A stretch of DNA of 64,000 nt from a virus (taxonomy: Duplodnaviria; Heunggongvirae; Uroviricota; Caudoviricetes): the IMG/VR virus record IMGVR_UViG_3300045988_145635. One strand, 5' to 3'. The position numbers and the translations under genes were made by a program. Every line of letters starts with the position of its first letter. The first letter of the stretch is position 1. This document shows, one piece after another, positions 6,046-32,813 of the stretch. Under the pieces are notes generated by a model. The model did not search any database, had not been told where the DNA came from, and saw only the letters and a program-made list of their open reading frames with translations.

Positions 6046-6148
6046 CAAATACCTTTATTTAAAGGATTGCCTGTTAATTTCTATTTAGCACCTTTTCATT
6101 TTTGAAATAATTGCACCATTAAACAAATCTTTTCTTAATGGTGCAATT

Positions 6149-7834: not shown

Positions 7835-7895
7835 TAGGTAAATACTTACCTAATTTGTGTAAGAATGTAGTTACTAAACGATAAGAGAAAAACAC

Positions 7896-8980: not shown

Positions 8981-9035
8981 ACGCTACAAATCCTTCTGCG
9001 TGAATAAATAAAGGCCATAAGTTGTGGCCTTAAAT

Positions 9036-9091
9036 AAATTGTTTTCTGCCTTTTCTTATTTGTGAAAATAACCACAACTAGAAAACAACGG
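9036..9091 (+). promoter_or_regulatory. Conserved promoter/operator module (TTGTTTTCTGCC ... GAAAACAA half-sites)
   Basis: ~45-bp module shared with 17143-17210 and 21217-21262, lying directly upstream of a start codon. Confidence 0.5.
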
Positions 9092-9099
9092 AGTTAAGA

Positions 9100-9741
9100 A
9101 TGTCTAGTATTTCCGAAGCACATATGTTCGCCGCTGGCGCTCATGGTGGCGTTGGTCAGAAAAGAAAATATACCGGCGAAAACTACATCAACCACCCGGT
9201 TGCTGTCCGAGAGATTGTTGCATTGCATGACGGAACCGTGGAGATGCAAATCGCGGCGCTTCTGCATGATGTGGTCGAAGACACCCATGTAACCATAGAG
9301 ATGGTTCGTGATCACTTCGGTGAGCGCGTAGCTGAAATGGTTCAGGCTCTGACCAACATTGCAAGGCCAGAAGACGGCAATCGAATACAGCGTTTCATCA
9401 TCAATGTCCGGGAGCTGGAGCAAAATCTCGACATGCAGACGCGCATGATCAAGCTGGCTGACCTGCTCGACAATACCTCTTCTATCGTGAGTCGCGATCC
9501 TGAGTTTTCAGCTATCTACCTTGCAGAGAAAGAGCTGATGCTGGACGTACTTTTTAACGGGAAGGAGATTGGTGCCAACGCTGATGTTGTCGAGTACATG
9601 GAGAGGATAGGTATAGAACACCCGTTGTTATTAAGCGCAAAGGCGAAAGTCACTGAAGGTATTGCGCTTCTGAAACCGGTACACATCAAACGTTATGAAA
9701 AACACAAATCGCTGATCTGGAGCGCGTGGGAGGCTGCATGA
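9100..9741 (+). CDS. HD-domain small alarmone hydrolase-like protein (RelA/SpoT hydrolase fold)
   Basis: HPVAVREIV ... AALLHDVVEDT matches the (p)ppGpp-hydrolase HD signature; 213 aa single-domain size. Confidence 0.65.
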   Translation: MSSISEAHMFAAGAHGGVGQKRKYTGENYINHPVAVREIVALHDGTVEMQIAALLHDVVEDTHVTIEMVRDHFGERVAEMVQALTNIARPEDGNRIQRFIINVRELEQNLDMQTRMIKLADLLDNTSSIVSRDPEFSAIYLAEKELMLDVLFNGKEIGANADVVEYMERIGIEHPLLLSAKAKVTEGIALLKPVHIKRYEKHKSLIWSAWEAA

Positions 9742-10280
9742 AGGTCGAAAAAATAGATGTTCTTTCCTTTGTGCTGACGGATCTGGAACGCCTCGATCCG
9801 GTTCGAGTGATGATTGAAAACTACGAACCTGGTAAGGGAAGAATCACCATCACCTGCTACGGAAAAGCGTGGACTGCGGCTTGGTTTGCTATGGGCGGTG
9901 ATGATGTGCAGACGTTCATTAAGCGAGTTAGCAACGATTATCTAATCGACAATTTCGACCCTCAACTGCTAAGCACGGTCGACGATGACAACGATGCAAA
10001 TCTGCTTTTCGTAAAGTCAGAAATCATAAAGTTACGAAGAGAGAGAGAAATAGACGCCGTACTGGCTCGCGAAATGTGGGACGAGGCGGAAAACGCCGAT
10101 GACGTAAAAGAAAGCTGCTGTTGTTTCGGCGTCGGTAACAAACTGCTGAATCTCTTTGGTGATGATCCGTGGTATGCCGACTGGCCAACGGTACCAAACC
10201 CGAAATACCAGTATCTGGAACGCATTGTGAACGCGGTACGTGAAGGGCTGAAAGAGTTAGATAAGTTAGAGGCATCGTAA
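9738..10280 (+). CDS. Hypothetical protein
   Basis: ATGA overlap with upstream gene, GGAGG RBS. Confidence 0.5.
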   Translation: MKVEKIDVLSFVLTDLERLDPVRVMIENYEPGKGRITITCYGKAWTAAWFAMGGDDVQTFIKRVSNDYLIDNFDPQLLSTVDDDNDANLLFVKSEIIKLRREREIDAVLAREMWDEAENADDVKESCCCFGVGNKLLNLFGDDPWYADWPTVPNPKYQYLERIVNAVREGLKELDKLEAS

Positions 10281-10723
10281 TGAGAGAGAAAATCAAGAAC
10301 CCGGTCGTCGTATTGTATAAACGGGAAACCAGCGATTCTTATGCGGTATCCATCACTGATGGAAGCCAGAACATGCACGATGGTCTGCTAATGGCCTCCG
10401 TATCTCCTGATGATTCTGACTACCCTTTCGCCACTTTCGCTATGGTTGGTTACTACATGGCTGCCGAAATTGAGAAGTTGCGTGTTGAGCTGGAGACCGT
10501 TAAACAGCGGGAAAAGGATCTGTTTATGGAAAATGTTCGACTTAAGTCAGGTATAGCAGGTCTGATACACCTCGGTATTCGATATGCGGATGTCGAAGTC
10601 ATGAAAATAGCTGGAGATGCCCAGCTTTCTACTCCCTGTACTGACAGCATCATAAACAGTATTGCATCAGGCGTTTTCACCAAAGAGGGTCAGCATGATG
10701 AGAACAGTAGAAGTTCGCGCTGA
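10280..10723 (+). CDS. Hypothetical protein
   Basis: TAATG overlap with upstream gene. Confidence 0.5.
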   Translation: MREKIKNPVVVLYKRETSDSYAVSITDGSQNMHDGLLMASVSPDDSDYPFATFAMVGYYMAAEIEKLRVELETVKQREKDLFMENVRLKSGIAGLIHLGIRYADVEVMKIAGDAQLSTPCTDSIINSIASGVFTKEGQHDENSRSSR

Positions 10724-10883
10724 AGATGTAATCCCAGGTGATGTGGTCATAACATCTAAAGGCAAACGATGTGCGGTTAAATCTTTCTGGATGGAAGGTG
10801 ACAAAGTGACTCTGTTCGGTACAGATGGTTCCGAAACGGATTATGACTACGACGAATTGCTTGTTGTTGAGAGAGCTATCTAA
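10695..10883 (+). CDS. Hypothetical small protein
   Basis: AGAGGG RBS before ATGATG; overlaps the end of the upstream gene. Confidence 0.4.
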   Translation: MMRTVEVRAEDVIPGDVVITSKGKRCAVKSFWMEGDKVTLFGTDGSETDYDYDELLVVERAI

Positions 10884-11536
10884 TGACCACCGTTAACAAT
10901 AAGAAATGCTACCCAAGCGAGAAATATCTTAATGAGCTGATCACCAACATTGAGTTTGCTGCAAGGGCACCAGTTGAAGTCGTGAGAGCGATTGCAGCAG
11001 AGCTACAGAAGCACCGTAAGGCCTATGCCAATACAGCAGCAACTAAGGATGGTTGGATAAGCTGTAGTGAGCGAATGCCTGTAATTGGCGAGCTAAATTG
11101 GAGAACTAGTTTTCCTTTACTGGTTACGTGTGAGATCGGCGTTATACCTGCTTATTACGGCTTTGTGAGCGTTAATGGTGATAGGCATTATGGCTTTATG
11201 GAGAGTCTTAAATACGGAGACGATAACGGCAACCATCCTCAAACTAATGAATATGGTCTGATTAGCAATGTCACACACTGGATGCCACTACCAGAACGCC
11301 GCAGGAGTCGAACAGTGAATAAAGCAGAGTTATTTCAGAAAATATCGGCTCTCGCGACTGAATGCCACGCTATAGCATCTGAGCTTGATGTTGGCGATGA
11401 ACGAACCGAGATGTTCGAAATATACAGTGTGCTGCGCAATCTCTGTCGGCGTGGCTACGCCACTCAAGTAGGGCGAATGACTAACCCACTACTCTCATCC
11501 TGTGATGAGGATGACTCGGATGAGGATGACGAATGA
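10883..11536 (+). CDS. DUF551-like phage protein with acidic C-terminal tail
   Basis: WISCSERMP ... THWMPLPE resembles the DUF551 signature as I recall it; TAATG coupling. Confidence 0.45.
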   Translation: MTTVNNKKCYPSEKYLNELITNIEFAARAPVEVVRAIAAELQKHRKAYANTAATKDGWISCSERMPVIGELNWRTSFPLLVTCEIGVIPAYYGFVSVNGDRHYGFMESLKYGDDNGNHPQTNEYGLISNVTHWMPLPERRRSRTVNKAELFQKISALATECHAIASELDVGDERTEMFEIYSVLRNLCRRGYATQVGRMTNPLLSSCDEDDSDEDDE

Positions 11537-11916
11537 TGCATAAATCAGTAGCCGGTGAGTTTCAGAAGGAAGTCGATAATACCACTGATCTATTGGACGA
11601 TATTTTAAGCATTCTCGCGCTGCTTGAGGCTGGCGATTGGTCAGAACATTGCACTAAAACAGAGCTAGGCGGTCGGCTTGAAAGAGAGATTACACGACTG
11701 ATTAGCGATGCCCAAAATGATTTGTCACCTGAGCATCTCCCCTGCGATGTAGTTCTTGTGCCAGGGATGAGGATACACGAAGGCGTCAGAACGAAAACAT
11801 TATTAACCGCATTACAGAGAAGAGCCGAACTAAGCTCGCGGATAAAGTTGATGCCATCCAAAATATTTGATGTCGTCAAATTTATGCCATCGCAACATAC
11901 TGAGAGAGATAAATGA
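11533..11916 (+). CDS. Hypothetical protein
   Basis: ATGA overlap with upstream gene. Confidence 0.5.
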   Translation: MMHKSVAGEFQKEVDNTTDLLDDILSILALLEAGDWSEHCTKTELGGRLEREITRLISDAQNDLSPEHLPCDVVLVPGMRIHEGVRTKTLLTALQRRAELSSRIKLMPSKIFDVVKFMPSQHTERDK

Positions 11917-12539
11917 GCACGGTAGCGAAAGATCTCACAGAAGATATTCTCAATGAAATTATTGCTGGTGCAAATACCTCGCTTGAGCAACTTCTTGCGT
12001 TAGCACTGAGAGCCGAACGTCGAGACAGAAATCGTTTTTATGAGCGATTACCAGGGAAGCGACCAGATAGATCGGATGAAGAAGGTTGCGATATAGACTA
12101 CATGGAGCCTTCAGAGATTTATCAACTTGGTAAAGATGACGGCTGGAACGCTTATCACGATGCTGTGATGAAGTTGGATGAAAAAGTTAAACCTCTTTCT
12201 CGACCGGTAGATCACGGTTTCCGCGATAACTGCGAATGCTCTAGTTGCCAGACCACGGCCCGTATTTGTTCCGAATTGACAGATAAGTCCAGCCTAATCT
12301 ACGAAGTTAATGTAGGCGGTAATACATGGGTCGAATGCACAAGAGCTGCATACGTAAGAGCAAAAGACAAGGGTGAATTAACCAGAGTTGTTACCAATCA
12401 CCCAAATAATGAGCTTAAAGATCACCAGATTCGAGAACTGGTGAACGAGTTGAGAGATATTGCGGTTCAGTACCACGGAACGCAGCAATTGCGGGAGAAG
12501 ATTGCCAGAGCAGTGAACAACTCAGTCCGTAAAAAATAA
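11913..12539 (+). CDS. Hypothetical protein
   Basis: ATGA overlap with upstream gene; followed by a hairpin terminator. Confidence 0.5.
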   Translation: MSTVAKDLTEDILNEIIAGANTSLEQLLALALRAERRDRNRFYERLPGKRPDRSDEEGCDIDYMEPSEIYQLGKDDGWNAYHDAVMKLDEKVKPLSRPVDHGFRDNCECSSCQTTARICSELTDKSSLIYEVNVGGNTWVECTRAAYVRAKDKGELTRVVTNHPNNELKDHQIRELVNELRDIAVQYHGTQQLREKIARAVNNSVRKK

Positions 12540-12556
12540 GCAATAGTACGATAAAG

Positions 12557-12583
12557 AGGCCCCATGCTCTTGATGGGGCCTGT
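12557..12583 (+). terminator. Factor-independent terminator closing the left-arm operon
   Basis: AGGCCCCA-loop-TGGGGCCT stem followed by a T. Confidence 0.5.
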
Positions 12584-13304
12584 AGCAACTAGCGTTATGG
12601 ACGCTGGTTTACGTACTCAATGATCGCTTTGATAATCGCGAACATCGGCGGCACGATTTTGAACAGTAAGTTAACCATAACAGGCCTCACTTAGTTTTAT
12701 CGCGCCTAGCTGCAAATACCTTTGGGCTTGCCTTTGCAGTTGCAATATCTGTAGTCGCCAGATACTTACGGCACGATTTCGAGTTAAGGTAAGGTTTTAG
12801 AGTCACCAAAAACCTGGACTTAAATCTTCTTTGAGAACAACGATGTTTAGTAAATGGTCATTATTACCTGGTATGACCACTCAACGTTTCTTGATGAATC
12901 CAGTACATTCGGTTAATCTTAATTCAGTCGCCAGATACTTATGGCTCAGGAACAGAGCCGCAAACTCTGTTTCCTTTTAAAAAGCCCAGCCTAGTCAACT
13001 GGGCTTTTTAATGTCTATTTTTAACCCAATGAACCTTCAATACCGCAACATCAGTGTCTTGCGAATTAAGATAGTGTGTATAGGTTATGCATGCAAGTGC
13101 ATAACTCTGTGGATAACTCAGGAAGGAAAAAGTAGCTTCCGCGCAATTTAGGCCAGACAAGGCTTTCGCAAAAGTCAACAGAGAGAAAAAATTTGTTAAA
13201 AATAACGTTTGTTGGAATTGTATATATTTATGCCTTTCAATAGTTAGCATCTTATTAACATCTTTTTTAAGAGATAGAGTTCAAAAATATATAGCTTCAA
13301 CATA

Positions 13305-13324
13305 TACTGTATGTGTATACAGTA
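13305..13324 (+). promoter_or_regulatory. LexA (SOS) box
   Basis: TACTGTATGTGTATACAGTA fits CTGT-N8-ACAG; 17 nt upstream of the UmuD-prime-like start. Confidence 0.65.
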
Positions 13325-13340
13325 TTAAGAGGCGAGTATT

Positions 13341-13730
13341 ATGGGCTTCCCTTCTCCTGCGGCGGATTATGCTGAGAGCCGTATTTCTCTTGATCAGCAG
13401 ATAATTAGACATCCTTCAGCGACCTACTTCATGAGGGCAGCTGATAGTCATCATCGTGAGGGAATATTGCAGGGCGCATTGCTGGTGGTCGATTCCTCAC
13501 TTACCCCGGTTGATGGTTCTCTGCTTGTATGCGCTCTGGATGGGGAATATCGCGTAAAAAGATACCGGAAGTATCCACGTCAGCATCTGGAGGATTTAAG
13601 AACTGGTAAGAAGGAAGCATTGCCAAAGGATGACGATGGATGCACGGGCAGCAATGCCGTGTTTGGTGTGATCACTCACATTATCAACGACGCAAGAAGT
13701 GGCGAGTTTGATGATTGTCCTGTGATGTAG
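13341..13730 (+). CDS. UmuD-prime-like S24 peptidase-family protein (HumD-like, pre-truncated UmuD mimic)
   Basis: Begins MGFPSPAADY, i.e. at the position of the UmuD self-cleavage site; conserved Ser (ADS) and Lys (VKRYRK) positions; SOS box upstream. Confidence 0.7.
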   Translation: MGFPSPAADYAESRISLDQQIIRHPSATYFMRAADSHHREGILQGALLVVDSSLTPVDGSLLVCALDGEYRVKRYRKYPRQHLEDLRTGKKEALPKDDDGCTGSNAVFGVITHIINDARSGEFDDCPVM

Positions 13731-13767
13731 GAGAACTGTTTAGGTGGTGCAATGCACCACCTTTTTA

Positions 13768-14868
13768 TCACACTGCGCGGAATGCGATTTCGCCAGGTAT
13801 TACTTCACCTTGCCAATACATTTGGGCAGCAACGCGATCTGCGAGGTCACGATAAATAGCCGTAAATTCGCTATCTGGACGACTAATAACGGTTGGTGTT
13901 CCGTTATCCAGATCTTCACGAAGAGAGATATGAAGTGGCATTTGGCCTAACAACTGCGTGTTGTATTTCTCGGCCAGTTTCTGTGCGCCACCGGTGCCAA
14001 AAATTGGCTCGTGATGACCGCAGTTACTGCAAATATGCACACTCATGTTTTCGACGATACCCAGTACCGGCACTTCGACTTTTTCGAACATCACAATGCC
14101 TTTCTTCGCATCGATCAGCGCGATGTCTTGCGGCGTAGTTACCACAACCGCACCAGTTACAGGAATGTTCTGCGCCAGCGTCAACTGAATATCACCAGTG
14201 CCCGGCGGCATATCGAGAACGAGATAGTCCAGATCAGGCCATAGAGTTTCCTGCAACATCTGCATCAGCGCCTTGCTGGCCATCGGTCCACGCCACACCA
14301 TTGCATTGTCGTCGGTGACCAGATAACCAATAGAGTTGGTTGCCAGGCCATGAGACATGATAGGTGCCATGTGAGTACCGTCCGGTGAGGTTGGACGTTG
14401 GTTTTCCGCGCCCAGCATGGTTGGAATTGATGGACCATAGATATCGGCATCCAAAATACCAACTTTCGCACCTTCAGCAGCCAACGCCAGTGCCAGATTT
14501 ACCGCCGTGGAGGATTTACCTACGCCGCCCTTGCCTGAGCTGACGGCGATAATGTTCTTAACGCCATTAATGCCTGGTTGGTTTTTGACGCGCTTAAGCG
14601 TGGCAATGTTGTACGACAGCTTCCAGTCAATAGCCTTTGCGCCAGTGATACGGAGCAGATCACCACTACATTGCTCTTTCAGGTCTTCAAAAGGCTTATT
14701 CCACACGAAAGGCATGATTAGTTCGACATGCAGTGTGTCATCCATCAACGCAACATGGTGTAACGCTTTAAGCGTAGTCAGGTTGTGTTTCAGGGTTGGG
14801 TGCTGAAAATTAGCCAGCGTACCGGCTACCATTGCTCTCAGGGCATCCGGCGATTTGGACTCGCTCAT
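13768..14868 (-). CDS. apbC: Fe-S cluster carrier ATPase ApbC (Mrp)
   Basis: 366 aa; Walker A SSGKGGVGKSS, CxxC (CSNCGH); near-identical over its length to enterobacterial Mrp as I recall it. Confidence 0.93.
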   Translation of the reverse strand: MSESKSPDALRAMVAGTLANFQHPTLKHNLTTLKALHHVALMDDTLHVELIMPFVWNKPFEDLKEQCSGDLLRITGAKAIDWKLSYNIATLKRVKNQPGINGVKNIIAVSSGKGGVGKSSTAVNLALALAAEGAKVGILDADIYGPSIPTMLGAENQRPTSPDGTHMAPIMSHGLATNSIGYLVTDDNAMVWRGPMASKALMQMLQETLWPDLDYLVLDMPPGTGDIQLTLAQNIPVTGAVVVTTPQDIALIDAKKGIVMFEKVEVPVLGIVENMSVHICSNCGHHEPIFGTGGAQKLAEKYNTQLLGQMPLHISLREDLDNGTPTVISRPDSEFTAIYRDLADRVAAQMYWQGEVIPGEIAFRAV

Positions 14869-15025
14869 CCCGTCTCCTTTATTTTAATTTGCGCAATTGT
14901 CGCCTTGTAGTGTACTCCAGCTACGACATTTAATCATTTATGAGAAATGCTGTTATCACATGGCAGACATAAGGCCATTTTGTTACTATCAAGCCCCTTT
15001 TCACTACAAAGAAGTAATGCCTACT

Positions 15026-17059
15026 ATGACCCAAGTCGCGAAGAAAATTCTGGTGACGTGCGCGCTGCCGTACGCTAACGGCTCAATCCACCTCGGCCAT
15101 ATGCTGGAGCACATCCAGGCTGATGTCTGGGTTCGTTACCAGCGAATGCGCGGCCACGAGGTTAATTTCATCTGTGCCGACGATGCCCACGGTACGCCGA
15201 TCATGCTGAAAGCGCAGCAGCTTGGTATCACACCGGAGCAGATGATTGGCGAAATGAGTCAGGAACACCAGACTGATTTCGCAGGCTTTAACATCAGCTA
15301 TGACAACTATCACTCGACGCACAGCGAAGAGAACCGTCAGTTGTCTGAGCTTATCTATACTCGCCTGAAAGAGAACGGTTTTATTAAAAACCGCACTATC
15401 TCTCAGTTGTACGACCCGGAAAAAGGCATGTTCCTGCCGGATCGTTTTGTAAAAGGCACCTGCCCGAAATGTAAAGCGCCAGATCAATACGGCGATAACT
15501 GTGAAGTCTGCGGCGCAACATATAGCCCGACTGAATTGATCGAGCCGAAATCGGTGGTTTCTGGCGCTACCCCGGTAATGCGTGATTCCGAACACTTCTT
15601 CTTTGATCTGCCTTCTTTCAGCGAAATGTTGCAGGCATGGACCCGCAGCGGCGCGTTGCAGGAGCAGGTGGCGAACAAAATGCAGGAATGGTTTGAATCC
15701 GGCCTGCAACAGTGGGATATCTCCCGCGATGCGCCTTACTTCGGTTTTGAAATTCCGGACGCGCCGGGCAAATATTTCTACGTCTGGCTGGACGCGCCGA
15801 TTGGCTACATGGGTTCCTTCAAGAATCTGTGCGACAAGCGCGGCGATACCACCAGCTTCGATGAATACTGGAAGAAAGACTCCACCGCCGAGCTGTACCA
15901 CTTCATCGGTAAAGATATTGTTTACTTCCACAGCCTGTTCTGGCCTGCCATGCTGGAAGGCAGCAACTTCCGCAAGCCGACCAACCTGTTTGTTCACGGC
16001 TATGTGACAGTGAACGGCGCGAAGATGTCCAAGTCTCGCGGTACCTTTATTAAAGCCAGCACCTGGCTGAATCATTTTGACGCCGACAGCCTGCGTTACT
16101 ACTACACTGCGAAACTCTCTTCGCGCATTGATGATATCGATCTCAACCTGGAGGATTTCGTTCAGCGCGTGAATGCCGATATCGTGAACAAAGTGGTTAA
16201 CCTGGCCTCCCGTAATGCAGGCTTTATCAACAAGCGTTTTGACGGCGTGCTGGCAAGCGAACTGGCTGACCCGCAACTGTACAAAACCTTTACTGATGCC
16301 GCTGAAGTGATTGGCGAAGCATGGGAAAGCCGCGAATTTGGTAAAGCTATCCGTGAAATCATGGCATTGGCTGACCTGGCTAACCGCTATGTCGATGAAC
16401 AGGCTCCGTGGGTGGTGGCGAAGCAGGAAGGGCGCGATGCCGATCTGCAGGCGATTTGCTCTATGGGCATTAACCTGTTCCGCGTGCTGATGACGTACCT
16501 GAAACCGGTACTGCCGAAACTGACTGAACGTGCAGAAGCATTCCTGAATACAGAACTGACCTGGGATGGTATCCAGCAACCGCTGCTGGGCCATAAAGTG
16601 AATCCGTTCAAGGCACTGTATAACCGTATCGATATGAAACAGGTGGAAGCACTGGTGGAAGCATCCAAAGAAGAAGTGAAAGCCACAGCCGCACCGGTAA
16701 CTGGCCCACTGGCTGACGACCCGATTCAGGAAACCATCACCTTTGACGACTTCGCCAAAGTTGACCTGCGTGTGGCGCTGATTGAAAACGCGGAGTTTGT
16801 TGAAGGCTCTGACAAACTGCTGCGTCTGACACTGGATCTCGGTGGGGAAAAGCGTAATGTCTTCTCAGGCATCCGTTCTGCTTATCCCGACCCACAGGCA
16901 TTGATTGGTCGTCACACCATTATGGTGGCTAACCTGGCTCCGCGTAAAATGCGCTTCGGTATCTCCGAAGGCATGGTGATGGCTGCTGGCCCCGGCGGGA
17001 AAGATATCTTCCTGTTAAGCCCGGATGCTGGTGCTAAACCTGGCCACCAGGTTAAGTAA
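15026..17059 (+). CDS. metG: Methionine--tRNA ligase
   Basis: HIGH motif (ANGSIHLGH), KMSKS motif, zinc knuckles CPKC/CEVC, C-terminal tRNA-binding domain; start chosen at [11 protein letters not shown] (the ORF-track start at 14897 is an upstream extension). Confidence 0.96.
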
Positions 17060-17079
17060 TTAAACAACCTCTGTTCGCA

Positions 17080-17106
17080 ATGCCCGGCAACACGCTGGGC
17101 ATTTTC
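17080..17106 (+). terminator. metG terminator
   Basis: ATGCCC-loop-GGGCAT hairpin followed by TTTT. Confidence 0.5.
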
Positions 17107-17142
17107 ATATAGACACAATCCCTTCTGATTTACGCATACCCT

Positions 17143-17210
17143 AAAACAATTTGTTTTCTGCCTTTTGTTAATTGAGATAATAAGCCACATAAGAAAACAA
17201 ATTGTTTCGG
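17143..17210 (+). promoter_or_regulatory. Paired operator motif A sites (AAAACAATTTGTTTT and AAGAAAACAAATTGTTT) flanking a GATAAT -10-like hexamer
   Basis: Two palindromes 48 bp apart immediately upstream of the 17221 start. Confidence 0.55.
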
Positions 17211-17220
17211 AGTGGTTGAA

Positions 17221-17520
17221 ATGTTGAACATTACCCAAGCCTACCAGGTGGCATTGATCAGTTCATCTCATACATCAGAGGAAGATGCTCGTCGATTCAT
17301 GATCGCAAGCAATGAGCTGGATTGGGTTTCGCAAATTGACGGCGGTTGTATTGTCCACGCCGGGTTACAGGATGATGTCTGGAAAGACGACTTGCGTCGA
17401 TATGGTATATCCGAAGGCGCGATTGCTAACATTCAGAAAGTACTTGATGTAGGCTTTGACTCTGTACATTTTGATTGTGGTGCGCCGGTCGTTGAAGGGC
17501 TTGAGTGCTGGAACTGGTAA
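17221..17520 (+). CDS. Hypothetical protein
   Basis: ATG with GGAGTGG spacer; first cassette of right arm. Confidence 0.5.
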   Translation: MLNITQAYQVALISSSHTSEEDARRFMIASNELDWVSQIDGGCIVHAGLQDDVWKDDLRRYGISEGAIANIQKVLDVGFDSVHFDCGAPVVEGLECWNW

Positions 17521-17565
17521 CAGATATTAAAGCATTGGTAGTTTGTTTTTAGGATTATCAAAGAA

Positions 17566-18300
17566 ATGAAAAAGTTGAAAAGTTTAGAAATCCCTGGGAC
17601 TGGTTATAAATTCTTTATGGACAACGCGGAGTGTGCACCTAACGCGTTGGAAAAAATACAAAGTCTTATCAACAGCCTTACTGAAGAAGCGAAAGAACTG
17701 AAGAGCGAGGCGACAAAGGACAATACAGCTAAAATCCAATGCTTAAATCTCGTTTCTTATTGTTTATATCAAGTGTCCAAGACACTGATTAAAGGCAATA
17801 TCTATTACGACGATGAAGACACCTCGACACCTGAAGAAAAAGATAGCGATGAAGAACTCTATGAAGATATCTCTACTAGTGCGGGTCACGCTGCCTTCGA
17901 TGCTATGGGTAAATCGTCAGGCATCAGATCATTTGTTGAACAGAACAATTCGACAATAATGATTGAGTACTGTGAACAAACAAGCTCCAAGGCCATACAT
18001 GTTCTTCACGATGTTGCTGCAGGGGTTCGCTGTGAGGCTGAAGCGGTCAGAAAAGATGTATTTGGTGCAGACAGTAATACCGTGAAAGCGTTCATCAACA
18101 GTGCTCTGCTAAATTCTTACTCAAACCTTATCGTCAATGCGGCACTATGCGCAAATTCTGGTGAAGAACACATTGTCATAACCGAAACCAAATATGAGCA
18201 TCAACAGTCACCAACCATAGAAGAGGTAACTGCATTGGCTATCAAACAGGCGAGTGAAATTAGTGATGAAATTCTCTCTCTGCTAAACAAAACTAAGTAA
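17566..18300 (+). CDS. Hypothetical protein
   Basis: 244-aa ORF; no motif recognised. Confidence 0.5.
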   Translation: MKKLKSLEIPGTGYKFFMDNAECAPNALEKIQSLINSLTEEAKELKSEATKDNTAKIQCLNLVSYCLYQVSKTLIKGNIYYDDEDTSTPEEKDSDEELYEDISTSAGHAAFDAMGKSSGIRSFVEQNNSTIMIEYCEQTSSKAIHVLHDVAAGVRCEAEAVRKDVFGADSNTVKAFINSALLNSYSNLIVNAALCANSGEEHIVITETKYEHQQSPTIEEVTALAIKQASEISDEILSLLNKTK

Positions 18301-18379
18301 AACATTGATAATGGCGGTCACAATTTGATTCTTTTCTATAAGAATCCGTTGATCGCCACTACTCCCCTTCCATGCCTGG

Positions 18380-19200
18380 AATCACATCCTTAAATATCAA
18401 TAGGTTACAGTTGTTTATACCAATAAGAAAACAACTGAATAACAGATCAACGAAACATCAACGCTTTCACCCGATTTGGTCTAAAAAATTGACGTTTTCA
18501 CACATCACTGCTTATACCCGTAATTCTACGCAGCAGACAGCGCCACAGCGTCCAATTTTCACCACAGACGACCCAACACACTACCAACAAAAACACACGC
18601 TCAAAATCGTTCCCGTTGCGTTACATAACCATATAAACAACTTATTTTCAGGAATAACAAAACAACTAAATAACACATATGCCATTCCCAAAACAACCAA
18701 CCTCTTTATGGCAGGCTACCGAAAAGACCCACCTCTTCTTCCCAGGCTACCGGACAACCAACCTAACTTTCACAGGCAATCCGAAAACATTCATACGCGC
18801 GATACCCACGACACGCCATTACCCAAACAACGAAGAAACACCTGAACCACTGAAACCCCAACGAAGCCTGTTACCGCAAGGATTCTCTCAATCCCAAAAG
18901 ACACGAAACATAACAATCACGGGAAACGCCATTACCCAATACACGAATAACTACAAAAGCCCTTCACACACTCCAGACAAACAACTCAAACACAATAACG
19001 AAAGGAATCGCCCACCTGCCATTACTCCATACACGGAGAAGAACAATCACCAAAACGACGAGAACACCCCATAGAAGAACCACCGCAAAACGAACGAAAC
19101 CACATACACCGACAGAGAGAACAACACACCCAATTCACCAACAGAAATAGTCGCCGTATAGAACGTTCTGGAAGGAGTGAGCATTAACGCCTATAGAGAG
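18380..19200 (+). other. ORF-poor, strongly strand-asymmetric A+C-rich tract (G- and T-poor on the plus strand)
   Basis: ~0.8 kb dominated by A and C; contains short repeated CAGGCTACCG-like and CCACCTCTT motifs; six-frame ORFs here translate to low-complexity sequence. Confidence 0.55.
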
Positions 19201-19360
19201 GTTGAAACAGATAAAACACGAAGAAAACACAACATGTATAGCGAAGAAGCCAGGTATGTATAAGTGGGGAGGGAAGGAGGGGTGTCGCCTCCTTTTTCGT
19301 ATTTATTCAACTCCTGATTTTATCCCCCGTAACACCCCTACGGTCAGCCTTCGGTCCATA

Positions 19361-19497
19361 CAGGGAAAAGGTTGCATCCCGCTACAGAAACGGCTGGGTT
19401 GCCTTCGGGGAACGGCTGGGGATTTTCAGGGAAACGGTCGAGTTGCCTGTGTGGATTTCGGGAAAAGGCTCGATGCCGGTTCAGGAACGGTGGCGTA
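19361..19497 (+). repeat. Iteron-like array: six ~22-bp-spaced degenerate repeats (GGGAAA[A/C]GG core)
   Basis: Cores at about 19363, 19386, 19408, 19429, 19460, 19483. Confidence 0.6.
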
Positions 19498-19854
19498 CCG
19501 GTATAGCGTGAGGGAGAGTTGCGGCTGTCCACCTGTAATGTGCGGGAAGAAGAGAGGCGCTCACGTGCAGGCGAACTTACTTACCGTTGGACTCCCTCTG
19601 AATGCCCAGCTACAGCGTAATTGTGCCAGACAGTCAGCGGGTCACAATCGATTTCAGTAGGTTTTCGGGGAGAGGATTATTCTGCCCACCAGCCACCTTC
19701 GGCCACTAAATCAGAATAATGTAAAAAGTGTACTCGGTACTGAACCTGAAAACTCACTGCCAAAACCACATTCACCGGAATAAAATCCTTTTTCGCCTGT
19801 GCGTTATTGCGATAATAACACCAACAAGAAAACATGTTGTTTAAGGATTGCTTT

Positions 19855-20184
19855 ATGTTTGCAAATATCGACATCAACCAAATCAAGAAATTAACTCAAA
19901 AAGAGTTTGATCAGTTTTATGAGTTAGAAGGTTGGTCTTCCACTCTGATCAATTCGCGGTGGGTGCTTGAGCTGATGACTCGTGATGACGCACCTGCTTT
20001 GATGATTTGCGACATGGGTGAAGATGCTGACTTTATGGATATGAGCGAATTTTGTGTGGACACATACAACCGCAGCCAGAAGTACTACTTCACATGCGAT
20101 AGCGAAAATGACGTGATTTCTAAGGTCTATCTTCACCTCGTCCAGCATTGGGACGTTCAGGAGTTTCTTGAAGTATTCGAGTAA
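19855..20184 (+). CDS. Hypothetical protein
   Basis: AAGGA RBS; operator motif A at 19825-19846; own terminator at 20193-20213. Confidence 0.5.
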   Translation: MFANIDINQIKKLTQKEFDQFYELEGWSSTLINSRWVLELMTRDDAPALMICDMGEDADFMDMSEFCVDTYNRSQKYYFTCDSENDVISKVYLHLVQHWDVQEFLEVFE

Positions 20185-20338
20185 CCCCAACCAAAGCCAG
20201 CATTGCTGGCTTAACTTAATCTGTAGCCGCAGGGAAGAACCTGCATATCGCCCATGCACCTGATCAATATGCTTTGTAGCCGTTTTCTTACTGGTATTAT
20301 TTACGCCATTGAGAAAACAAGTTGTTTACGGAGTTGTG

Positions 20339-20650
20339 ATGAAAAAATCATTGGTTCTTGGTCTGGACAAAGACCAGAAGAGAAAAGAGAAGCCTGCGCT
20401 GGTTGCTCAATTAACTTTGCTGGACATCGTTGCCAATGGAACCTCTATTCGTCTGTTCCGTGAAACGGCGGTGTCTTTCGATAAAAACACCTTTACTCGT
20501 TATGTAATGAATGTTCGTCGCCAGCGTGGAAAAGGCTGGGTGGCATTTCAAAGAATGTGGCCGGAACATCAGCTCGAACTGGCTTTGATGGAAGTTAACC
20601 GCGTGGCCCAGCAAGAAATTCAGAGAGCATCAGTGATGGCAATAGCCTGA
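20339..20650 (+). CDS. Hypothetical protein
   Basis: ACGGAG RBS; operator motif A at 20307-20333. Confidence 0.5.
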   Translation: MKKSLVLGLDKDQKRKEKPALVAQLTLLDIVANGTSIRLFRETAVSFDKNTFTRYVMNVRRQRGKGWVAFQRMWPEHQLELALMEVNRVAQQEIQRASVMAIA

Positions 20651-20777
20651 TAATGTGCAAGTGGTAATTAGTCGACAGTACGACAGCCCCGCCATCCTTA
20701 CGGGGCTTTTTTTGTATTGTAAGTACATACTTACGATCATAGAATATAAAAATAACCAAAACACTACGGAGAGTGAA

Positions 20778-21173
20778 ATGACCGTTAAACGCGAAAAACT
20801 GACAGTTGATGTTTACTATGCCTCTGAAACCGCCGAAGGTAAGAATGTGGCAAAAATCACCGTTGTTACGTACAACACCGAAACTGGCGCCGAAGTCCAG
20901 GCCAGTACGATCGTGCGTAAAGGTGATGCCTCCGGCGGCGAGTACGAGACTCAATACCAGTCTATTTTCGATGCAACTGACCCGCTGCTGCTGAAAATCG
21001 AGAACTACTTCCGCCAGGTTGATGAAGAGGTGTTTGAAACCATGATGAATATGGTTAACACCGTATTCGCCTCCAGCCTGAATACCAGCACCACCTGGAT
21101 TGGCCAGTACGGTCTGCGCATTACCTCTGGCATTCCTGCCGACACCTTAATCCCTGAAAGCGTATTCGCTTAA
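20778..21173 (+). CDS. Hypothetical protein
   Basis: ACGGAGAGTG spacer before ATG; terminator hairpin upstream (20683-20712) and downstream. Confidence 0.5.
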   Translation: MTVKREKLTVDVYYASETAEGKNVAKITVVTYNTETGAEVQASTIVRKGDASGGEYETQYQSIFDATDPLLLKIENYFRQVDEEVFETMMNMVNTVFASSLNTSTTWIGQYGLRITSGIPADTLIPESVFA

Positions 21174-21290
21174 TCCTCTTTAAATGGCGCGTAAACCGCG
21201 CCATTTTCTTATACCCGATAACAATTTGTTTTCTGCCTTATCTGATTTGTGAAAATGATTTCACTGAAGCAACTTAATAAGGAAACCATC

Positions 21291-21665
21291 ATGGGACTTG
21301 ATATCTATATCGAGACACAGCCTAAAAACGATCTGAATAACGAGGCATCCAGAAAGCGGGTTGCTTACTTCTGTAAGTTCAATGCGCTCGTTGGGTGGAT
21401 GGAGCGCAACGTAGGTGAAGTCGAAAATTGTGAGCTTTTAGAATTAACGATGAATGACATTTGTCTTCTGAAAGCTCATTTGATGCACATAAACGAAAGT
21501 AATTGCGAAGAGTACTTGCCTACTCGGGAAGGTTTTTTCTTCGGCAGTCAGGAGTACGATGAAGGTTACTGGCATGATGTGGGGGAGTTGAAAGAGCTTG
21601 TGGAAGATCTGATTAAGAACCACGACTTTCACAATAACAGACTGACCTTCTGCGCCTGGTGGTAA
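21291..21665 (+). CDS. Hypothetical protein
   Basis: AAGGAAACC RBS; conserved promoter module upstream (21217-21262). Confidence 0.5.
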   Translation: MGLDIYIETQPKNDLNNEASRKRVAYFCKFNALVGWMERNVGEVENCELLELTMNDICLLKAHLMHINESNCEEYLPTREGFFFGSQEYDEGYWHDVGELKELVEDLIKNHDFHNNRLTFCAWW

Positions 21666-21666
21666 A

Positions 21667-21810
21667 TATGGGCGATTTCAAGAAACGCCTGAAGGAAAGA
21701 GCCGAGATGGTCAGAAAGCAAAACGCCTCTTCTGTCATCAGATACGCAAGGCAGTTTAGTCGCAACAACAAATCAGTTGAGGAAAAGATCCTTAGCGTAA
21801 TCGTGCGATA
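21667..21810 (+). CDS. Hypothetical small basic protein (47 aa)
   Basis: ATG 2 nt after the upstream stop; followed by AAGGCCACC-loop-GGTGGCCTT terminator. Confidence 0.3.
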
Positions 21811-22014
21811 ATTATTAAGGCCACCAGCATTGGTGGCCTTAAATGACCATCCTGTTTCCCGCAGGCTAAAACACCAACCTCTTACCTCCAGGCAACCGAC
21901 AAACCCACCTGTTCCCGTCCGGCTACCGCAACTTTCCACTTTGACGCCTTATTCGTACAACGATAATTAACACCAACAAGAAAACAATTTGTTATTTACG
22001 ATAAGGAATTAATC

Positions 22015-22626: not shown

Positions 22627-23114
22627 ATTCGCCTTTGTGTAGAAAAAAACATCGGGAAGCTGGTGGAATCCAACCAGCGGTTGTCGGACAGGTGAGCGGG
22701 GAAAATTATGATGACTTTCGTCGCCTGAGACATCCAGATTTCTTTCGTAGCATAATCACATACGTGATTAAGTGGTGTGATTATGTGAAAAATCACGCGC
22801 ACATAATACGCGAGCGGATACGGAACAAAACAAAATGCCGATCCGCGCCGACAAATAAACGCGGATCATAAAGCAAGACTAAAAGCCAATGATTAACCAT
22901 ACACCATAACGCAATATAACGCGTTTTAAGCGCGTTAATGCGCTAAGTAATGGGTATATACTGGTAAGGATATAAAAGCTCGTCTGTGGCGTTATTTTGG
23001 CGCTTATTTTTATGTTGTTGGAGTGAGTCAAAGACAATAAAAAAAGCGCCATCATTGGCGCGTTATGGTGGAAGTATTGGAAACGAAAAAAGCGCCCATA
23101 GTGGGCGCTCGATT

Positions 23115-23351
23115 TTATTTATGTAAACTGATTTCAAATCCCATTTCTACAAACGCTTTTAACATTAAAAATATATCAGCGTCATTCACGTCTGCTTTTT
23201 TTCGCTCCTGGTCGCTCAATAAGTCAATTTTGCGCGTCGTTTCATCTATAAGCTCGACTGCGCGCCCAGCGTAACCAGCGATCCCAGCGATGCGATTAAC
23301 ATAATATTCGTTATGGACGTTAACGCCAGCGATAAGAACAAACATGATCAA
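23115..23351 (-). CDS. Hypothetical small protein
   Basis: ORF bracketed by GCGCCCATAGTGGGCGC hairpins. Confidence 0.4.
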   Translation of the reverse strand: MIMFVLIAGVNVHNEYYVNRIAGIAGYAGRAVELIDETTRKIDLLSDQERKKADVNDADIFLMLKAFVEMGFEISLHK

Positions 23352-23365
23352 GCTCCTTAAAAAAA

Positions 23366-23569
23366 TTAAATAGAATTTTGAAGTTTTCCGATTAATGCGC
23401 TTAAACGTAAGTATTCACGTTTGCGCTTGCAATCTCGCTTGCTGTTAAGCAAATCAGAAAACGTAAAATTTAATTGGTCGCGTTGCGCGATCAAATCATC
23501 GATTAATTCCAGTTTATAAGCGCGATACTTTGCGCGATATTCCGCGCGGATCTTGTCATAGCTGACCAT
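23366..23569 (-). CDS. Hypothetical small basic protein
   Basis: 67-aa ORF, AT-rich. Confidence 0.4.
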   Translation of the reverse strand: MVSYDKIRAEYRAKYRAYKLELIDDLIAQRDQLNFTFSDLLNSKRDCKRKREYLRLSALIGKLQNSI

Positions 23570-23616
23570 TTTAAAGCTCCTTTAAAGCGCCCATAGTGGG
23601 CGCTTGATTCCATTAA

Positions 23617-24267
23617 TTACGCTTTGAAAGCATCAGCTAGATAATTGTAGAAATCATTCTTGATAAAGCGATATTGCTGCGTACCAGCTTTCGCGCTCCC
23701 AGCTCCTTTGACTTTTTCAACAAGTCCAAGACGTTCGCAAAGATTGATCAACTGGTTGGCTTGAGTATAGCCAGCGTCCAATTTAATCTCGCACGCTTTT
23801 TTCGCTTCATTCATTAAATCGAAAACAGCGCCATTGGTGAACGTGTCGATCTCGTCGTTAATCATATCGATTAAAGCGAATACACGAGATCCTGACATAT
23901 CAGCGACGGAATAAACACATTTACCAGCTTTAATGGATTTAACCAGATAAACCAGTTTTTCCAGTGAATAACTATTAGTCATTGCATCACGGAAAAATAC
24001 TTCTGGCGCTTGTTTACTTGCTTTGATCGCATAGTAGAAAACAGAGCATAATTTTTCGTCTTCTACTGCGTTTACGACGTTGTTGATGAAGTAAGCAAGT
24101 TTAGTGGTAGCAGCTTGCATATTTGCTTTGTCTGCTTTGGTGTGCGTACCATTTTTATAATGTTCATTATATGTTTGAGTTGCCAGATCTGCTTTTTCGC
24201 GCAGCTCGTCGGATACAATGGATGCAGCTTCAATGATGGATTTTTTAGAAATGATAATGTTAGCCAT
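23617..24267 (-). CDS. Hypothetical protein
   Basis: 216-aa ORF with its own upstream AT-rich leader. Confidence 0.5.
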   Translation of the reverse strand: MANIIISKKSIIEAASIVSDELREKADLATQTYNEHYKNGTHTKADKANMQAATTKLAYFINNVVNAVEDEKLCSVFYYAIKASKQAPEVFFRDAMTNSYSLEKLVYLVKSIKAGKCVYSVADMSGSRVFALIDMINDEIDTFTNGAVFDLMNEAKKACEIKLDAGYTQANQLINLCERLGLVEKVKGAGSAKAGTQQYRFIKNDFYNYLADAFKA

Positions 24268-24548
24268 GATTTCAATCCTTAGTATAAAATTTAATTGTCG
24301 TTAGCGATTTCGCTTTCGATGAGTCCAATTATCGATATGAGAAAAAAGATTGCAAGCGTTTTTTAATTTTTTTTTGCAGGGCGAAAGTCCTAGAAATAAA
24401 TACGAGATCGTCGAAGGTGTTCCCTAAATAAATAATCGATTCCGGCTTTAGACCTTATATATTTATACGGGGTAGAATTGAAAGAGTATAAAATGAATGG
24501 CGTGTAAAATAATAACCGGACTTAGCCGGTTATTACCCTTATAGGAAT

Positions 24549-24848
24549 TTACATCTTTTTTGCATAGTTCCTGATTTCTTTTATTATATATTCCTGAAAA
24601 CGCTCCGAGTTTTCGCATTTGTCTTTTGAAGACTCATCAAGTCCCAACTTGCATCCCGCAACGATCAGTCCATCTTGATATGCAGCGCCTAAAGCCATGC
24701 TTAGGTCTAACATGCACAAATCGTAGTCTTCCGCCTTTGAACACAACTCTGTAGAGACACGTTGCACTCGTTCAATGCTATTTTCTTGAGAAAATGCGGA
24801 AGAGCTAAAAATGAAAGTTAAGAATGTGAATGCTGCTACAGTTTTCAT
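24549..24848 (-). CDS. Small secreted Cys-containing protein (signal peptide)
   Basis: MKTVAAFTFLTFIFSSSAFSQE signal-like N-terminus; 4 Cys; terminator hairpin downstream (24505-24528). Confidence 0.5.
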   Translation of the reverse strand: MKTVAAFTFLTFIFSSSAFSQENSIERVQRVSTELCSKAEDYDLCMLDLSMALGAAYQDGLIVAGCKLGLDESSKDKCENSERFQEYIIKEIRNYAKKM

Positions 24849-24864
24849 ATCAATATCCTAAAAC

Positions 24865-24916
24865 GGTAAAATTCGGTCAACCAAATCGAAGAAAACAAGA
24901 ATTTTTCTGCCGTCTT
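24865..24916 (-). repeat. Promoter/leader direct repeat, copy 1 (also carries a remnant 3' gene end)
   Basis: ~52 bp near-identical to 25231-25282. Confidence 0.6.
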
Positions 24917-24923
24917 CATACAT

Positions 24924-25220
24924 TTATCGGACTGACTCTACAGCCTTACGATTGGTGTCAAAAAGCGCATCAACGAACAGCAATGAAGAGTTGTTCAATT
25001 CACATGGTTCATAATTTTCCACCTGTTCACATAGTTGAGCGGTCTTACCTATGTTTATCCCTAGTTTTACTGCTGCTGAAAGTTGAAACATGCAAACTGG
25101 AATATTCTGAGACGTTGAGCATACGTCATGCATCAGCGACTTAATAATTGCAATATCATCCTTTGCATTGGCTGAAATTGAGTAAACTAAAAATAATGAT
25201 GTCAATAGTATCGATTTCAT
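24924..25220 (-). CDS. Small secreted Cys-containing protein (signal peptide), same architecture as 24549-24848
   Basis: MKSILLTSLFLVYSISANA signal-like N-terminus; 4-5 Cys. Confidence 0.5.
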   Translation of the reverse strand: MKSILLTSLFLVYSISANAKDDIAIIKSLMHDVCSTSQNIPVCMFQLSAAVKLGINIGKTAQLCEQVENYEPCELNNSSLLFVDALFDTNRKAVESVR

Positions 25221-25223
25221 AAC

Positions 25224-25748
25224 TCAAAAAGGTAAAATTCGTTCAACCCAATCGAAGAAAACAAGAATTTTTCTGCCGTCTTTCAACTTAAGTGTGACTA
25301 GGCAGGCATCAACGCCATCTGACGTTCCCTCAATTTCGCGGCCGTCTGCCATGTAGACCCTTATAGATTGGCCGTTTTGATAAGCCTTGCGACATATCTT
25401 AAAAAAATCACGACGTGATGGCTGGTTGTCTACATAGTCAGGGTGTATTGTTAGTCTCCCTTTGAAATCGTAATCAATGCCATCAATTACGCCTGATTCA
25501 ATTGTGCTAATGCGCTCAAGTGGGAGCCTTATACGATTTTCTTTGTCAAATGGAGTTGGACAAAGGTCAACTTTGTTACGAGATGACATGAGACCATAAA
25601 CGTACATGCAAAACACTTGGCCGTCTTCGAGAGTGACTCTTACAGGAAATTTAGCCCTCCGCCAGAAGAGCAAGGTGCGTTCAGCATGTTCGTAGTCTCG
25701 CGGCCATACTTCAGCCGGTATGCCGTAGGTGATATCTTTCGTCGTCAT
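25224..25748 (-). CDS. Hypothetical protein
   Basis: Start placed at the internal Met so the gene abuts the upstream lipoprotein gene. Confidence 0.5.
   Translation of the reverse strand: MTTKDITYGIPAEVWPRDYEHAERTLLFWRRAKFPVRVTLEDGQVFCMYVYGLMSSRNKVDLCPTPFDKENRIRLPLERISTIESGVIDGIDYDFKGRLTIHPDYVDNQPSRRDFFKICRKAYQNGQSIRVYMADGREIEGTSDGVDACLVTLKLKDGRKILVFFDWVERILPF
25231..25282 (-). repeat. Promoter/leader direct repeat, copy 2 (overlaps the 3' end of gene 25224-25748)
   Basis: ~52 bp near-identical to 24865-24916. Confidence 0.6.
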
Positions 25749-25752: not shown

Positions 25753-26172
25753 TTATAAAGTGGTTGGCAATATGTCCATTGTACCATCCCAGGTAGTGAA
25801 AACCCGATATGTTTTCGAATCGCCCTGCTTTAGCTTTATTTCTCGTTCCATCCTGGAGGGGTTAAATGCGCAAAGACCTGAACTTTCAATTGATGTCCCA
25901 ACGATCCACTCTCCTTCGTTAAGGTAGAAAGTTGCTTTTTCACCAGGTTCTAGCTTTGCAGCCGTTTCTCCATTGATGAAAATGGAAGCGTTACATGCAG
26001 AACCAACCAGCCCTTTGTCTCGAACTATTGTTAGACTAGACTCATGTGGTGTTTGATATTTAAATATTCTGCTTTGAGGTGCATCCTTTGCCTTTGAAAT
26101 AGATATAGACGAAGACGAACACCCAATTAGTGACGTGGTTAGCATTAGAATCATTAAGTTTTTTGCTTTCAT
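25753..26172 (-). CDS. Lipoprotein (candidate superinfection-exclusion type)
   Basis: Signal peptide with lipobox LIGC; function inferred only from being a prophage-encoded lipoprotein. Confidence 0.5.
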   Translation of the reverse strand: MKAKNLMILMLTTSLIGCSSSSISISKAKDAPQSRIFKYQTPHESSLTIVRDKGLVGSACNASIFINGETAAKLEPGEKATFYLNEGEWIVGTSIESSGLCAFNPSRMEREIKLKQGDSKTYRVFTTWDGTMDILPTTL

Positions 26173-26199
26173 ATTTGATTGACTATGATTAGTGAGTGG

Positions 26200-26748
26200 C
26201 TACATGCTATTCTGAGTTCTGTTGTAAATATCTTTTAAGAGGTCATCTCTTTTTATGTTTTTACAGACTTTGTCGAAACTTAATTCACCTGATGATATGC
26301 AGTTGTTGTATTTTTCGATAAAATTTTTTAATGCCAGATGATTTTTGAAAAGAAAAGAAAAACCATAGGGTGACGTGCTATCTCTTATCCATTTCCGAGC
26401 ACTGGGATAAGTGTATAAATTTGAATGCAACTCCAATTTTCCAGGGGCCACGCCATCACAGGAGTCCATAATAGCGAACATTTTTGATATATCAAAAGGA
26501 TAAAAGACTACTCCGCAATTTGTCCTGGTGCCTTCAATATCTTTCACGTATATATAGTGTTCATAACGATCTTTACGTGAAGTCTTTAACCTGTATTGTA
26601 TTAGTTTGTGCTCTTCTTTTTGAGAAGAAGTTAGGTGTCTAGGGTTTTCTAAGCAAGATTTCTGTTTATTTTTTTTATGATAAAAATCCACACAGTCCTT
26701 TATTTCCTTTGCACTTAAAAATCTCTTATCAAAAGGTAAGTGACCCAT
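26200..26748 (-). CDS. Hypothetical protein (AT-rich)
   Basis: 182-aa ORF; no motif recognised. Confidence 0.45.
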   Translation of the reverse strand: MGHLPFDKRFLSAKEIKDCVDFYHKKNKQKSCLENPRHLTSSQKEEHKLIQYRLKTSRKDRYEHYIYVKDIEGTRTNCGVVFYPFDISKMFAIMDSCDGVAPGKLELHSNLYTYPSARKWIRDSTSPYGFSFLFKNHLALKNFIEKYNNCISSGELSFDKVCKNIKRDDLLKDIYNRTQNSM

Positions 26749-32621: not shown

Positions 32622-32719
32622 TCTGGGAGCTTATTTAAAGACCTGCTTCTGTATATATAAATAATAAGTAACTTATTAAATATATACGGAAGCAGGCTTA
32701 GTAAGACATGCCCAGACCT
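32622..32719. repeat. Long palindrome, copy B (core 32642-32696) with outer inverted repeat GGTCTGGG / CCCAGACC
   Basis: cctgcttctgtatatataaataataagtaacttattaaatatatacggaagcagg; lies just upstream of the terminase genes. Confidence 0.65.
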
Positions 32720-32813
32720 AATTAAACACCCCAGAAAACAAGTTGGTTAGCATATGCAGTAAACAAGTTGTTTTAGAGCGCATGGACGCGCTCTGTGTGT
32801 TTTAGAGGGATCT

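Follow-up and report, generated by a model that had tools for sequence, protein, structure and literature searches.

Site-specific capture of gene cassettes in integrons takes place between attC and attI, and yields a row of small genes that lack promoters of their own, are separated by a repeated sequence and are served by a promoter upstream. In the fljBA operon of Salmonella, FljA is a post-transcriptional repressor of fliC that acts on the fliC mRNA. In temperate phages, mosaic module exchange and 'moron' accessory genes, which in their classical form carry their own promoter and terminator, are established (the mosaicism model of Hendrix and colleagues). The locus described here has likenesses to each of these systems, and to tandem segmental duplications. 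It contains an FljA-family regulator gene followed by two small genes for cysteine-containing proteins (gene98 and gene99), each preceded by one copy of a direct repeat. A literature search on SSU5, phage-plasmids and FljA returned general papers on phage-plasmids, none of which combined FljA with these elements.

The window, by which we mean the whole 64-kb stretch of DNA that was analysed, is an SSU5-like phage-plasmid of Enterobacteriaceae, related most closely to the Escherichia phages CMS-2020a, PhiR41_1 and Cyrano and less closely to Salmonella phage SSU5. The genes of the region lie on the minus strand (Table 1). The regulator is a full-length member of the FljA family: it matched PF03614 (FljA / Flag1_repress) over profile positions 1–170 of 170 (E 3.3e-80, 268 bits against a gathering cutoff of 24) and phrog_1444 'transcriptional repressor' (E 1e-97), and its relatives are annotated as 'transcriptional regulator' or 'repressor of phase-1 flagellin'. 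Its start at the ATG at 25748 is backed by both the full length of the Pfam match and the annotation in relatives, and its C-terminal end reads ...DGRKILVFFDWVERILPF, with the stop codon at 25224–25226. Unlike FljA in the Salmonella operon, this regulator lies on a phage-plasmid, with no fljB or hin switch ahead of it in the annotated neighbourhood and with genes for small secreted proteins behind it; flagellin repression by the homolog is putative. Residues ~116–165 gave faint, sub-threshold LSM/Hfq-like matches (E 0.04–0.09) that, while not evidence alone, would fit the action of FljA on an mRNA.

Table 1. Positions of the features of the regulator and small-gene region in the window (a slash marks a cleavage site or separates the two arms of the hairpin).
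Feature	Position	Strand	Remarks
FljA-family gene ('repressor of phase-1 flagellin'), 174 aa	25224..25748	-	PF03614, phrog_1444; last 57 nt plus stop form copy B
Repeat copy B	25226..25282	-	functional 3' end of the regulator gene, ...DGRKILVFFDWVERILPF
gene98, 98 aa	24924..25220	-	signal peptide (…SANA/KDD), 4 Cys; E. coli-type allele of the slot
ATACAT	24918..24923		duplicated 6-nt end of D, came with gene98 from the 98-type parent; supplies the mini-ORF ATG
Mini-ORF MYEDGRKILVFFDLVDRILPF, 21 codons	24858..24923	-	orphan ORF containing copy A
Repeat copy A	24860..24917	-	orphan 58-nt remnant of the regulator 3' end, from the 99-type parent; within the mini-ORF
gene99, 99 aa	24549..24848	-	signal peptide (…SAFS/QEN), 4 Cys; Klebsiella-type allele of the slot
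Perfect 10-bp hairpin (TAATAACCGG/CCGGTTATTA), then UUAUUUUA on the minus strand	24510..24535	-	inverted repeat; part of the conserved flank D

A repeat search of the window identified a direct repeat of 64 nt in two copies, 24853–24916 and 25219–25282, with 91% identity and a spacing of 366 bp. The core of the repeat, which is the part homologous to coding sequence, spans 24860–24916 and 25226–25282 and is identical at 54 of 57 bases. Its ungapped score was 48, whereas the best direct repeats scored 14–19 in 30 surrogates of the full 64-kb window generated by a first-order Markov model; the repeat is genuine and far exceeds what chance would give. The first-pass annotation had read a duplicated segment of ~52 bp (25231–25282 repeated at 24865–24916), with the reservation that the copies might prove shorter or more divergent on exact alignment. 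The alignment instead lengthened it slightly, to the 57-nt core and the 64-nt extended repeat. Its reading of the mini-ORF, of the 98-aa cysteine protein and of the position of the regulator stop codon was also correct. The paralogous gene99, which follows copy A, was absent from it. Copy B, in which the regulator gene has its functional end, precedes gene98, copy A precedes gene99, and the array consists of two units of 366 bp each (25282..24917 and 24916..24551).

To place this array among its relatives we compared 19 related loci (L001–L019), which revealed four locus states, described here with respect to D, the conserved downstream region that includes the hairpin. In the empty state (SSU5, Cyrano, PhiR41_1 and CMS-2020a; L001–L004), D abuts the regulator stop codon and window positions 24550–25225 are missing entirely. 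The 99-only state reads D - gene99 - 9 nt - regulator and was found in E. coli (L007, L008, L009), Klebsiella (L011, L013) and Cronobacter (L019); these are variants with one repeat copy and no intervening gene, of the kind that the first-pass annotation had anticipated. The 98-only state reads D - gene98 - 3 nt - regulator and was found in E. coli (L010, L012). The two-gene state, D - gene99 - remnant - gene98 - regulator, is that of the window, L005, L006 and L014–L018. Among the 774 PLSDB records that match the region, only eight contained the whole two-gene arrangement, and it occurred in 7 of 5426 complete E. coli genomes, always on plasmids. Gene99 was present in 151 PLSDB records (138 Klebsiella, 10 Escherichia and 3 Cronobacter), and gene98-type genes in 111, 108 of them from Escherichia. 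The slot is usually empty or occupied by one small gene, of the gene98 type in E. coli and of the gene99 type in Klebsiella and Cronobacter. The 99-only state is rare in E. coli (two PLSDB records plus L009), and the layout regulator - 9 nt - gene99 is kept in Klebsiella, Cronobacter and E. coli.

Next, we considered the two small genes. The ATG of gene98 lies 3 nt after the regulator TGA, and that of gene99 lies 9 nt after the TAG of the remnant, a stop codon overlapped by a Shine–Dalgarno-like TAGGA. The gene98 protein matched phrog_9536 (E 3.5e-27) and the gene99 protein phrog_27673 (E 1e-61), with a precomputed PF26829 assignment on relatives. The two proteins share 27% identity (E 2e-5), with no detectable similarity at the DNA level, and are old, distant paralogs. 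Both sequences read like a signal peptide at the N-terminus, with an AXA-type cleavage motif, and the four cysteines align between the two families, the fourth being absent from a metagenomic relative (P0009). The gene98 ORF is intact in 8/8 two-gene elements and in the 98-only elements L010 and L012, and the ORFs of both genes are intact across relatives down to 71–76% DNA identity. As these ORFs are intact and dN/dS is low (~0.24–0.39 for gene98, ~0.24–0.5 for gene98 and gene99 together), we regard both as real genes. Gene98 is missing from the gene tables of most two-gene plasmids (L005, L006, L015–L018), and one E. coli record names a truncated version of 69 aa. Gene99 is disrupted in some single-gene elements, by a stop after 59 aa in L008 (NZ_CP027369.1) and by a frameshift in L013 (CP064822.1), and is therefore dispensable in at least some hosts.

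Homology searches revealed little about what these proteins do. Neither had a match to Pfam in our local library or a sequence match in the PDB; NCBIfam returned only a sub-threshold pectinesterase-inhibitor match that overlaps the signal peptide, and PHROGs returned families without an assigned function, together with a weak 'valyl tRNA synthetase modifier' match over the N-terminus. The family is tiny, with 8 and 3 clusters and nine representatives in 1.84 billion proteins. An AlphaFold model was all-helical and of low confidence (pLDDT 64.6), and a Foldseek search with this model against the PDB found nothing below E 3.5. The gene98 and gene99 products are probably small, helical, disulfide-bonded accessory proteins of the periplasm, a location predicted from their N-termini, that are co-expressed with the FljA homolog. 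As the spacers are 3 and 9 nt and no credible internal promoter was found, the regulator, gene98 and gene99 can be read as one operon, and the three genes would be co-transcribed from the regulator promoter to the hairpin in D. This hairpin lies just downstream of gene99 and is kept in all four locus types. Its RNA fold has an energy of -15.6 kcal/mol (z -2.7), and although a strict terminator scan did not call it, it is likely the shared terminator of the three-gene transcript.

The origin of the repeat can be traced at its internal junction. BLAST breakpoints fell at 24917 for 99-type and at 24918 for 98-type elements. To the left of this point, the window is 94–96% identical to 99-only elements, from D through gene99 and into the regulator end (58 nt); to the right, it is 88.5% identical to the 98-only element L010, from the 6 nt after gene98 through the regulator. 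At the junction itself, interior regulator sequence meets the 6 nt that trail gene98 in 98-only elements: with slashes marking the boundaries, L010 reads CCCTTATACAT/TTATCGG from the end of D into gene98, and the window reads GTCTTC/ATACAT/TTATCGG. The junction (GCCGTCTTC/ATACATTTATCGG) is identical in 8/8 two-gene plasmids. As all sequenced two-gene elements share this one junction, the array arose once. The parental sequences have essentially no microhomology at the break, which argues for illegitimate rather than homologous or site-specific joining.

The orphan mini-ORF is a pseudogene fragment. Copy A has acquired private substitutions, a G at 24876 in 8/8 two-gene elements and an A at 24883 in the subclade of the window, neither of which was found in any intact regulator gene examined. 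Both are non-synonymous (W to L and E to D). They are suggestive of decay of the remnant under relaxed constraint, two changes being too few for a statistical statement. Two of the array-bearing elements, L006 and L018, share the exact sequence of L010 in copy B and in the adjacent part of the regulator, and their copy A agrees with a regulator end of the L008 type down to the C at the junction; these two therefore look closest to the original recombinant. The regulator body of the window is 98% identical to L007 in its 5' part and L009-like near copy B, and the regulator end of L009 is identical to copy B of the window. The subclade of the window later gained a different regulator body by homologous recombination.

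We consider it likely that the repeat was left behind by one unequal, illegitimate recombination event in which two related SSU5-like phage-plasmids took part, each with a different allele of a single slot. This slot lies between the stop codon of the FljA-family gene and the terminator region D. In the 98-type parent, an element like L010, the break would have fallen 6 nt past the end of gene98; in the 99-type parent, an element like L008, it would have fallen 58 nt upstream of the regulator stop. The two elements were presumably co-resident in one cell. Joining these ends would yield regulator - gene98 - (6 nt of D plus the 58-nt regulator remnant) - gene99 - D. The outcome would be a 366-bp heteroallelic tandem duplication, the ends of which are the observed repeat, and copy A would be a non-functional remnant that slowly gathers substitutions. 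As the two proteins are so divergent, yet each small gene is 94–99% identical to single-copy alleles elsewhere, gene98 and gene99 predate the array. The two-gene state is thus derived: its genes are older than the array, the single-gene layout is found in three genera, and the array is seldom seen, occurs in E. coli only and has a single junction. This direction of events is the most likely one by parsimony, with the parental molecules assigned by affinity.

Other histories could produce a similar layout. A tandem duplication of one 366-bp unit in a single element, after which the genes diverged while the 57-nt ends were kept alike by gene conversion or selection, would explain why the units are exactly 366 bp each and why gene98 and gene99 are true paralogs. 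However, the genes have 27% protein identity and no DNA similarity while the repeat is 95% identical, each gene closely resembles single-copy alleles in other elements, and gene98-type alleles that differ by 25% already occur as a single copy (L012). The old single-copy alleles and the contrast between repeat and proteins mean that the divergence of the genes is far older than the array, and we regard this duplication as improbable. It is at least as improbable that the two-gene form is ancestral and that the one-gene and no-gene loci are its deletion derivatives, with the 99-only state formed by homologous recombination between copy A and copy B, and the 98-only state by microhomology-mediated deletion. 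Recombination between the copies would be mechanistically easy and yields the exact 99-only structure, and with a regulator end identical to copy B, L009 and some other E. coli 99-only elements may have arisen from the array in this way. As a general history this fits poorly with the occurrence of the array in 8/774 records, only in E. coli and with one common junction, and with the presence of single-gene states in Cronobacter, Klebsiella and divergent E. coli lineages, between which synonymous divergence is saturated. Moreover, the 98-only element L012 (76% identity) has a normal D end (TATAGAT) without a deletion scar.

There is similarly little chance that the 57 nt stand before each small gene because they have a function, be it as a promoter or operator related to TTGTTTTCTGCC and the 16-nt motif AAGAAAACAANTTGTT, as a site-specific recombination site, or as a leader for translational coupling. 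Two 9-mers in the repeat are over-represented (TTTTCTGCC, 6 times against 0.72 expected; TTGTTTTCT, 15 times against 1.14 expected), and a relation of the repeat to the TTGTTTTCTGCC promoter module had been proposed earlier. This relation did not survive comparison with other alleles: both 9-mers fall on synonymous or conservative codon positions of the regulator and vary among its alleles, reading AGAAAATAA...TTTTCTACC in L001 and L007 and missing from L004, L011 and L013, and one independent occurrence of each is the chance expectation. The 16-nt motif, including its palindromic AACAANTTGTT core, has no site at ≤2 mismatches in the repeat, which reads AAGAAAACAAGAATTT (3 mismatches) and lacks the palindromic half of AAGAAAACAANTTGTT; the orthologous position reads AGAAAATAAGTATTTTTCTACC in L001, L003 and L007 and AAACAGGACGATCATTTTTCGCC in L011 and L013, and is absent from L004. 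A promoter consensus scan of the region yielded 9 sites against 5.9 ± 2.6 expected, with no convincing promoter before gene98 or gene99. Its one hit in copy A, TTGACC-17-GATATT (24880..24852, minus strand), was rejected, as it ends 3 nt before the gene99 ATG and would start transcription inside gene99. The first private substitution of copy A changed the -35-like hexamer from TTGAAC to TTGACC, and given this improvement, some selection on copy A is conceivable. The repeat had no Rfam match at E ≤ 1, its copies gave fold z-scores of -0.7 and +1.0, and an inverted-repeat search found none within it.

A coupling leader could be seen in the mini-ORF, which starts right after the gene98 TAA and ends in a TAG that overlaps the Shine–Dalgarno-like TAGGA of gene99. 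This overlap is the native context of gene99; the odds that the mini-ORF falls in frame by accident are 1 in 3, and both of its private substitutions change the protein. It is therefore unlikely that the regulator remnant relays translational coupling to gene99. A recombination site is contradicted by the lack of inverted repeats and of a nearby recombinase signal. Although the array resembles integron cassettes in the tandem arrangement of its small promoterless genes, the sequence between them is coding sequence of the upstream gene and shows no attC-like imperfect inverted repeats, all arrays have one junction rather than recurrent core recombination, and the annotated neighbourhoods show no integrase association. 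No IntI-type tyrosine recombinase was present among the genes at 23.6–27.5 kb, where the array is flanked by a lipoprotein gene, genes for hypothetical proteins and a helicase, and ParB-like genes. A transposon-like insertion with target duplication was also rejected: the repeat is 57–64 nt long instead of 2–14 bp, there are no terminal inverted repeats at 24917–25225, and the insert encodes only the 98-aa secreted protein.

Signs of module exchange were also seen at this site. Between the window and Klebsiella L011, dS is 0.086 for gene99, compared with 1.9 for the FljA-family gene and 1.5 for the downstream gene of 216 aa, and identity is high over a block from ~24495 to ~24880 that takes in the hairpin, gene99 and the first few bases of the regulator end. 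Identities by segment are just as discordant in the other loci. The gene99 module has thus moved recently between Klebsiella-type and E. coli-type elements, and slot alleles are exchanged between divergent backbones via recombination in the conserved flanks. The idea of 'cassette exchange' put forward earlier holds in this looser sense, of alleles swapped between two conserved flanks, namely the 3' end of the regulator and the terminator region downstream, as seen in the mosaic identities and the dS contrast, but the repeat is not the recombination site. Likewise, the suggestion that the 98-aa gene was inserted or duplicated by recombination was right in that the repeat is a footprint of recombination and that gene98-only and empty relatives exist; the repeat is not a dedicated site at which this happened, as the junction is a one-off illegitimate event.

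These features agree with the mosaicism model: genes that are direct neighbours in some relatives, as in the four empty loci, are separated in others by units the size of a gene, the boundaries of these units lie exactly at gene ends, from stop codon to stop codon, and the synonymous divergence of module and flanks is discordant. The region is also AT-rich, with 34–39% GC in the neighbourhood, 44% in the FljA-family gene and 46% in the window. In a possible departure from classical morons, the small genes have no detectable promoter, follow the upstream stop codon after 3–9 nt and would share an operon terminator; the hairpin travels with the high-identity gene99 block in Klebsiella and is also present in empty sites. 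As in tandem segmental duplications, direct repeats bound an array of 366-bp units with a novel internal junction, relatives with a single unit exist, and the distribution is restricted to a few plasmids with an identical junction. However, the units are heteroallelic, and the recombination partners were therefore two different elements or diverged alleles, not sister copies.

Several further repeats and indels were seen in the window. Upstream of the regulator, a lipoprotein gene (phrog_890) and a 182-aa ORF (25753–26748, minus strand) occur together only in the near-identical L005 among the compared loci, and the variable region thus reaches beyond the two-gene array. A 34-nt repeat with a GC-rich hairpin (AAAGCGCCCATAGTGGGCGCT...) at 23089–23122 and 23584–23617 brackets two small genes. 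Cyrano (L002) lacks window positions 23363–23573, which hold a 67-aa gene (23366..23569, minus strand), and L005, L006, L007 and L009 also lack this gene, judged by their gene tables; the region of the 67-aa gene is another indel the size of a gene within this accessory region. The 16-nt motif AAGAAAACAANTTGTT has 13 sites at ≤2 mismatches against 0.39 expected, located at 3758–21993 (mostly on the plus strand), 32732–32772 and 61935–61950. At 9028–9088, 17140–17200, 19775–19835 and 21215–21275, TTGTTTTCTGCC lies ~30 nt upstream of it, and the motif is sometimes paired with an upstream inverted half-site. Its sites likely make up the promoter/operator family of this phage-plasmid. Three copies of an AT-rich hairpin element of 55 nt (CCTGCTTCTGTATATATAAATAA...ATATATACGGAAGCAGG) are present (1287–1341, 32642–32696 and 63946–64000), the last two being 100% identical and 31,304 bp apart. 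Finally, diverged 120-nt in-frame coding repeats at 57236–58799 (GGTAATGC...ACGAAATTGCAGAC...GATGG) resemble a repeated domain of a tail fibre or collar.

The array is an ordinary footprint of mosaic phage evolution, with no new element or mechanism, and the value of its analysis lies mainly in annotation and evolutionary bookkeeping: it explains the orphan mini-ORF and flags gene98 as an unannotated gene in most RefSeq copies. It is rather doubtful that the slot is a site dedicated to the exchange of small periplasmic disulfide-bonded proteins between SSU5-like phage-plasmids from different genera, with the mini-ORF kept as a translational-coupling relay to gene99. If this were true, the swapped proteins could be lysogenic-conversion or exclusion factors that act alongside flagellin repression. 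Our comparison records a small hot spot of recombination, which lies downstream of an FljA homolog on a phage-plasmid and through which alleles pass between Klebsiella-type and E. coli-type elements.
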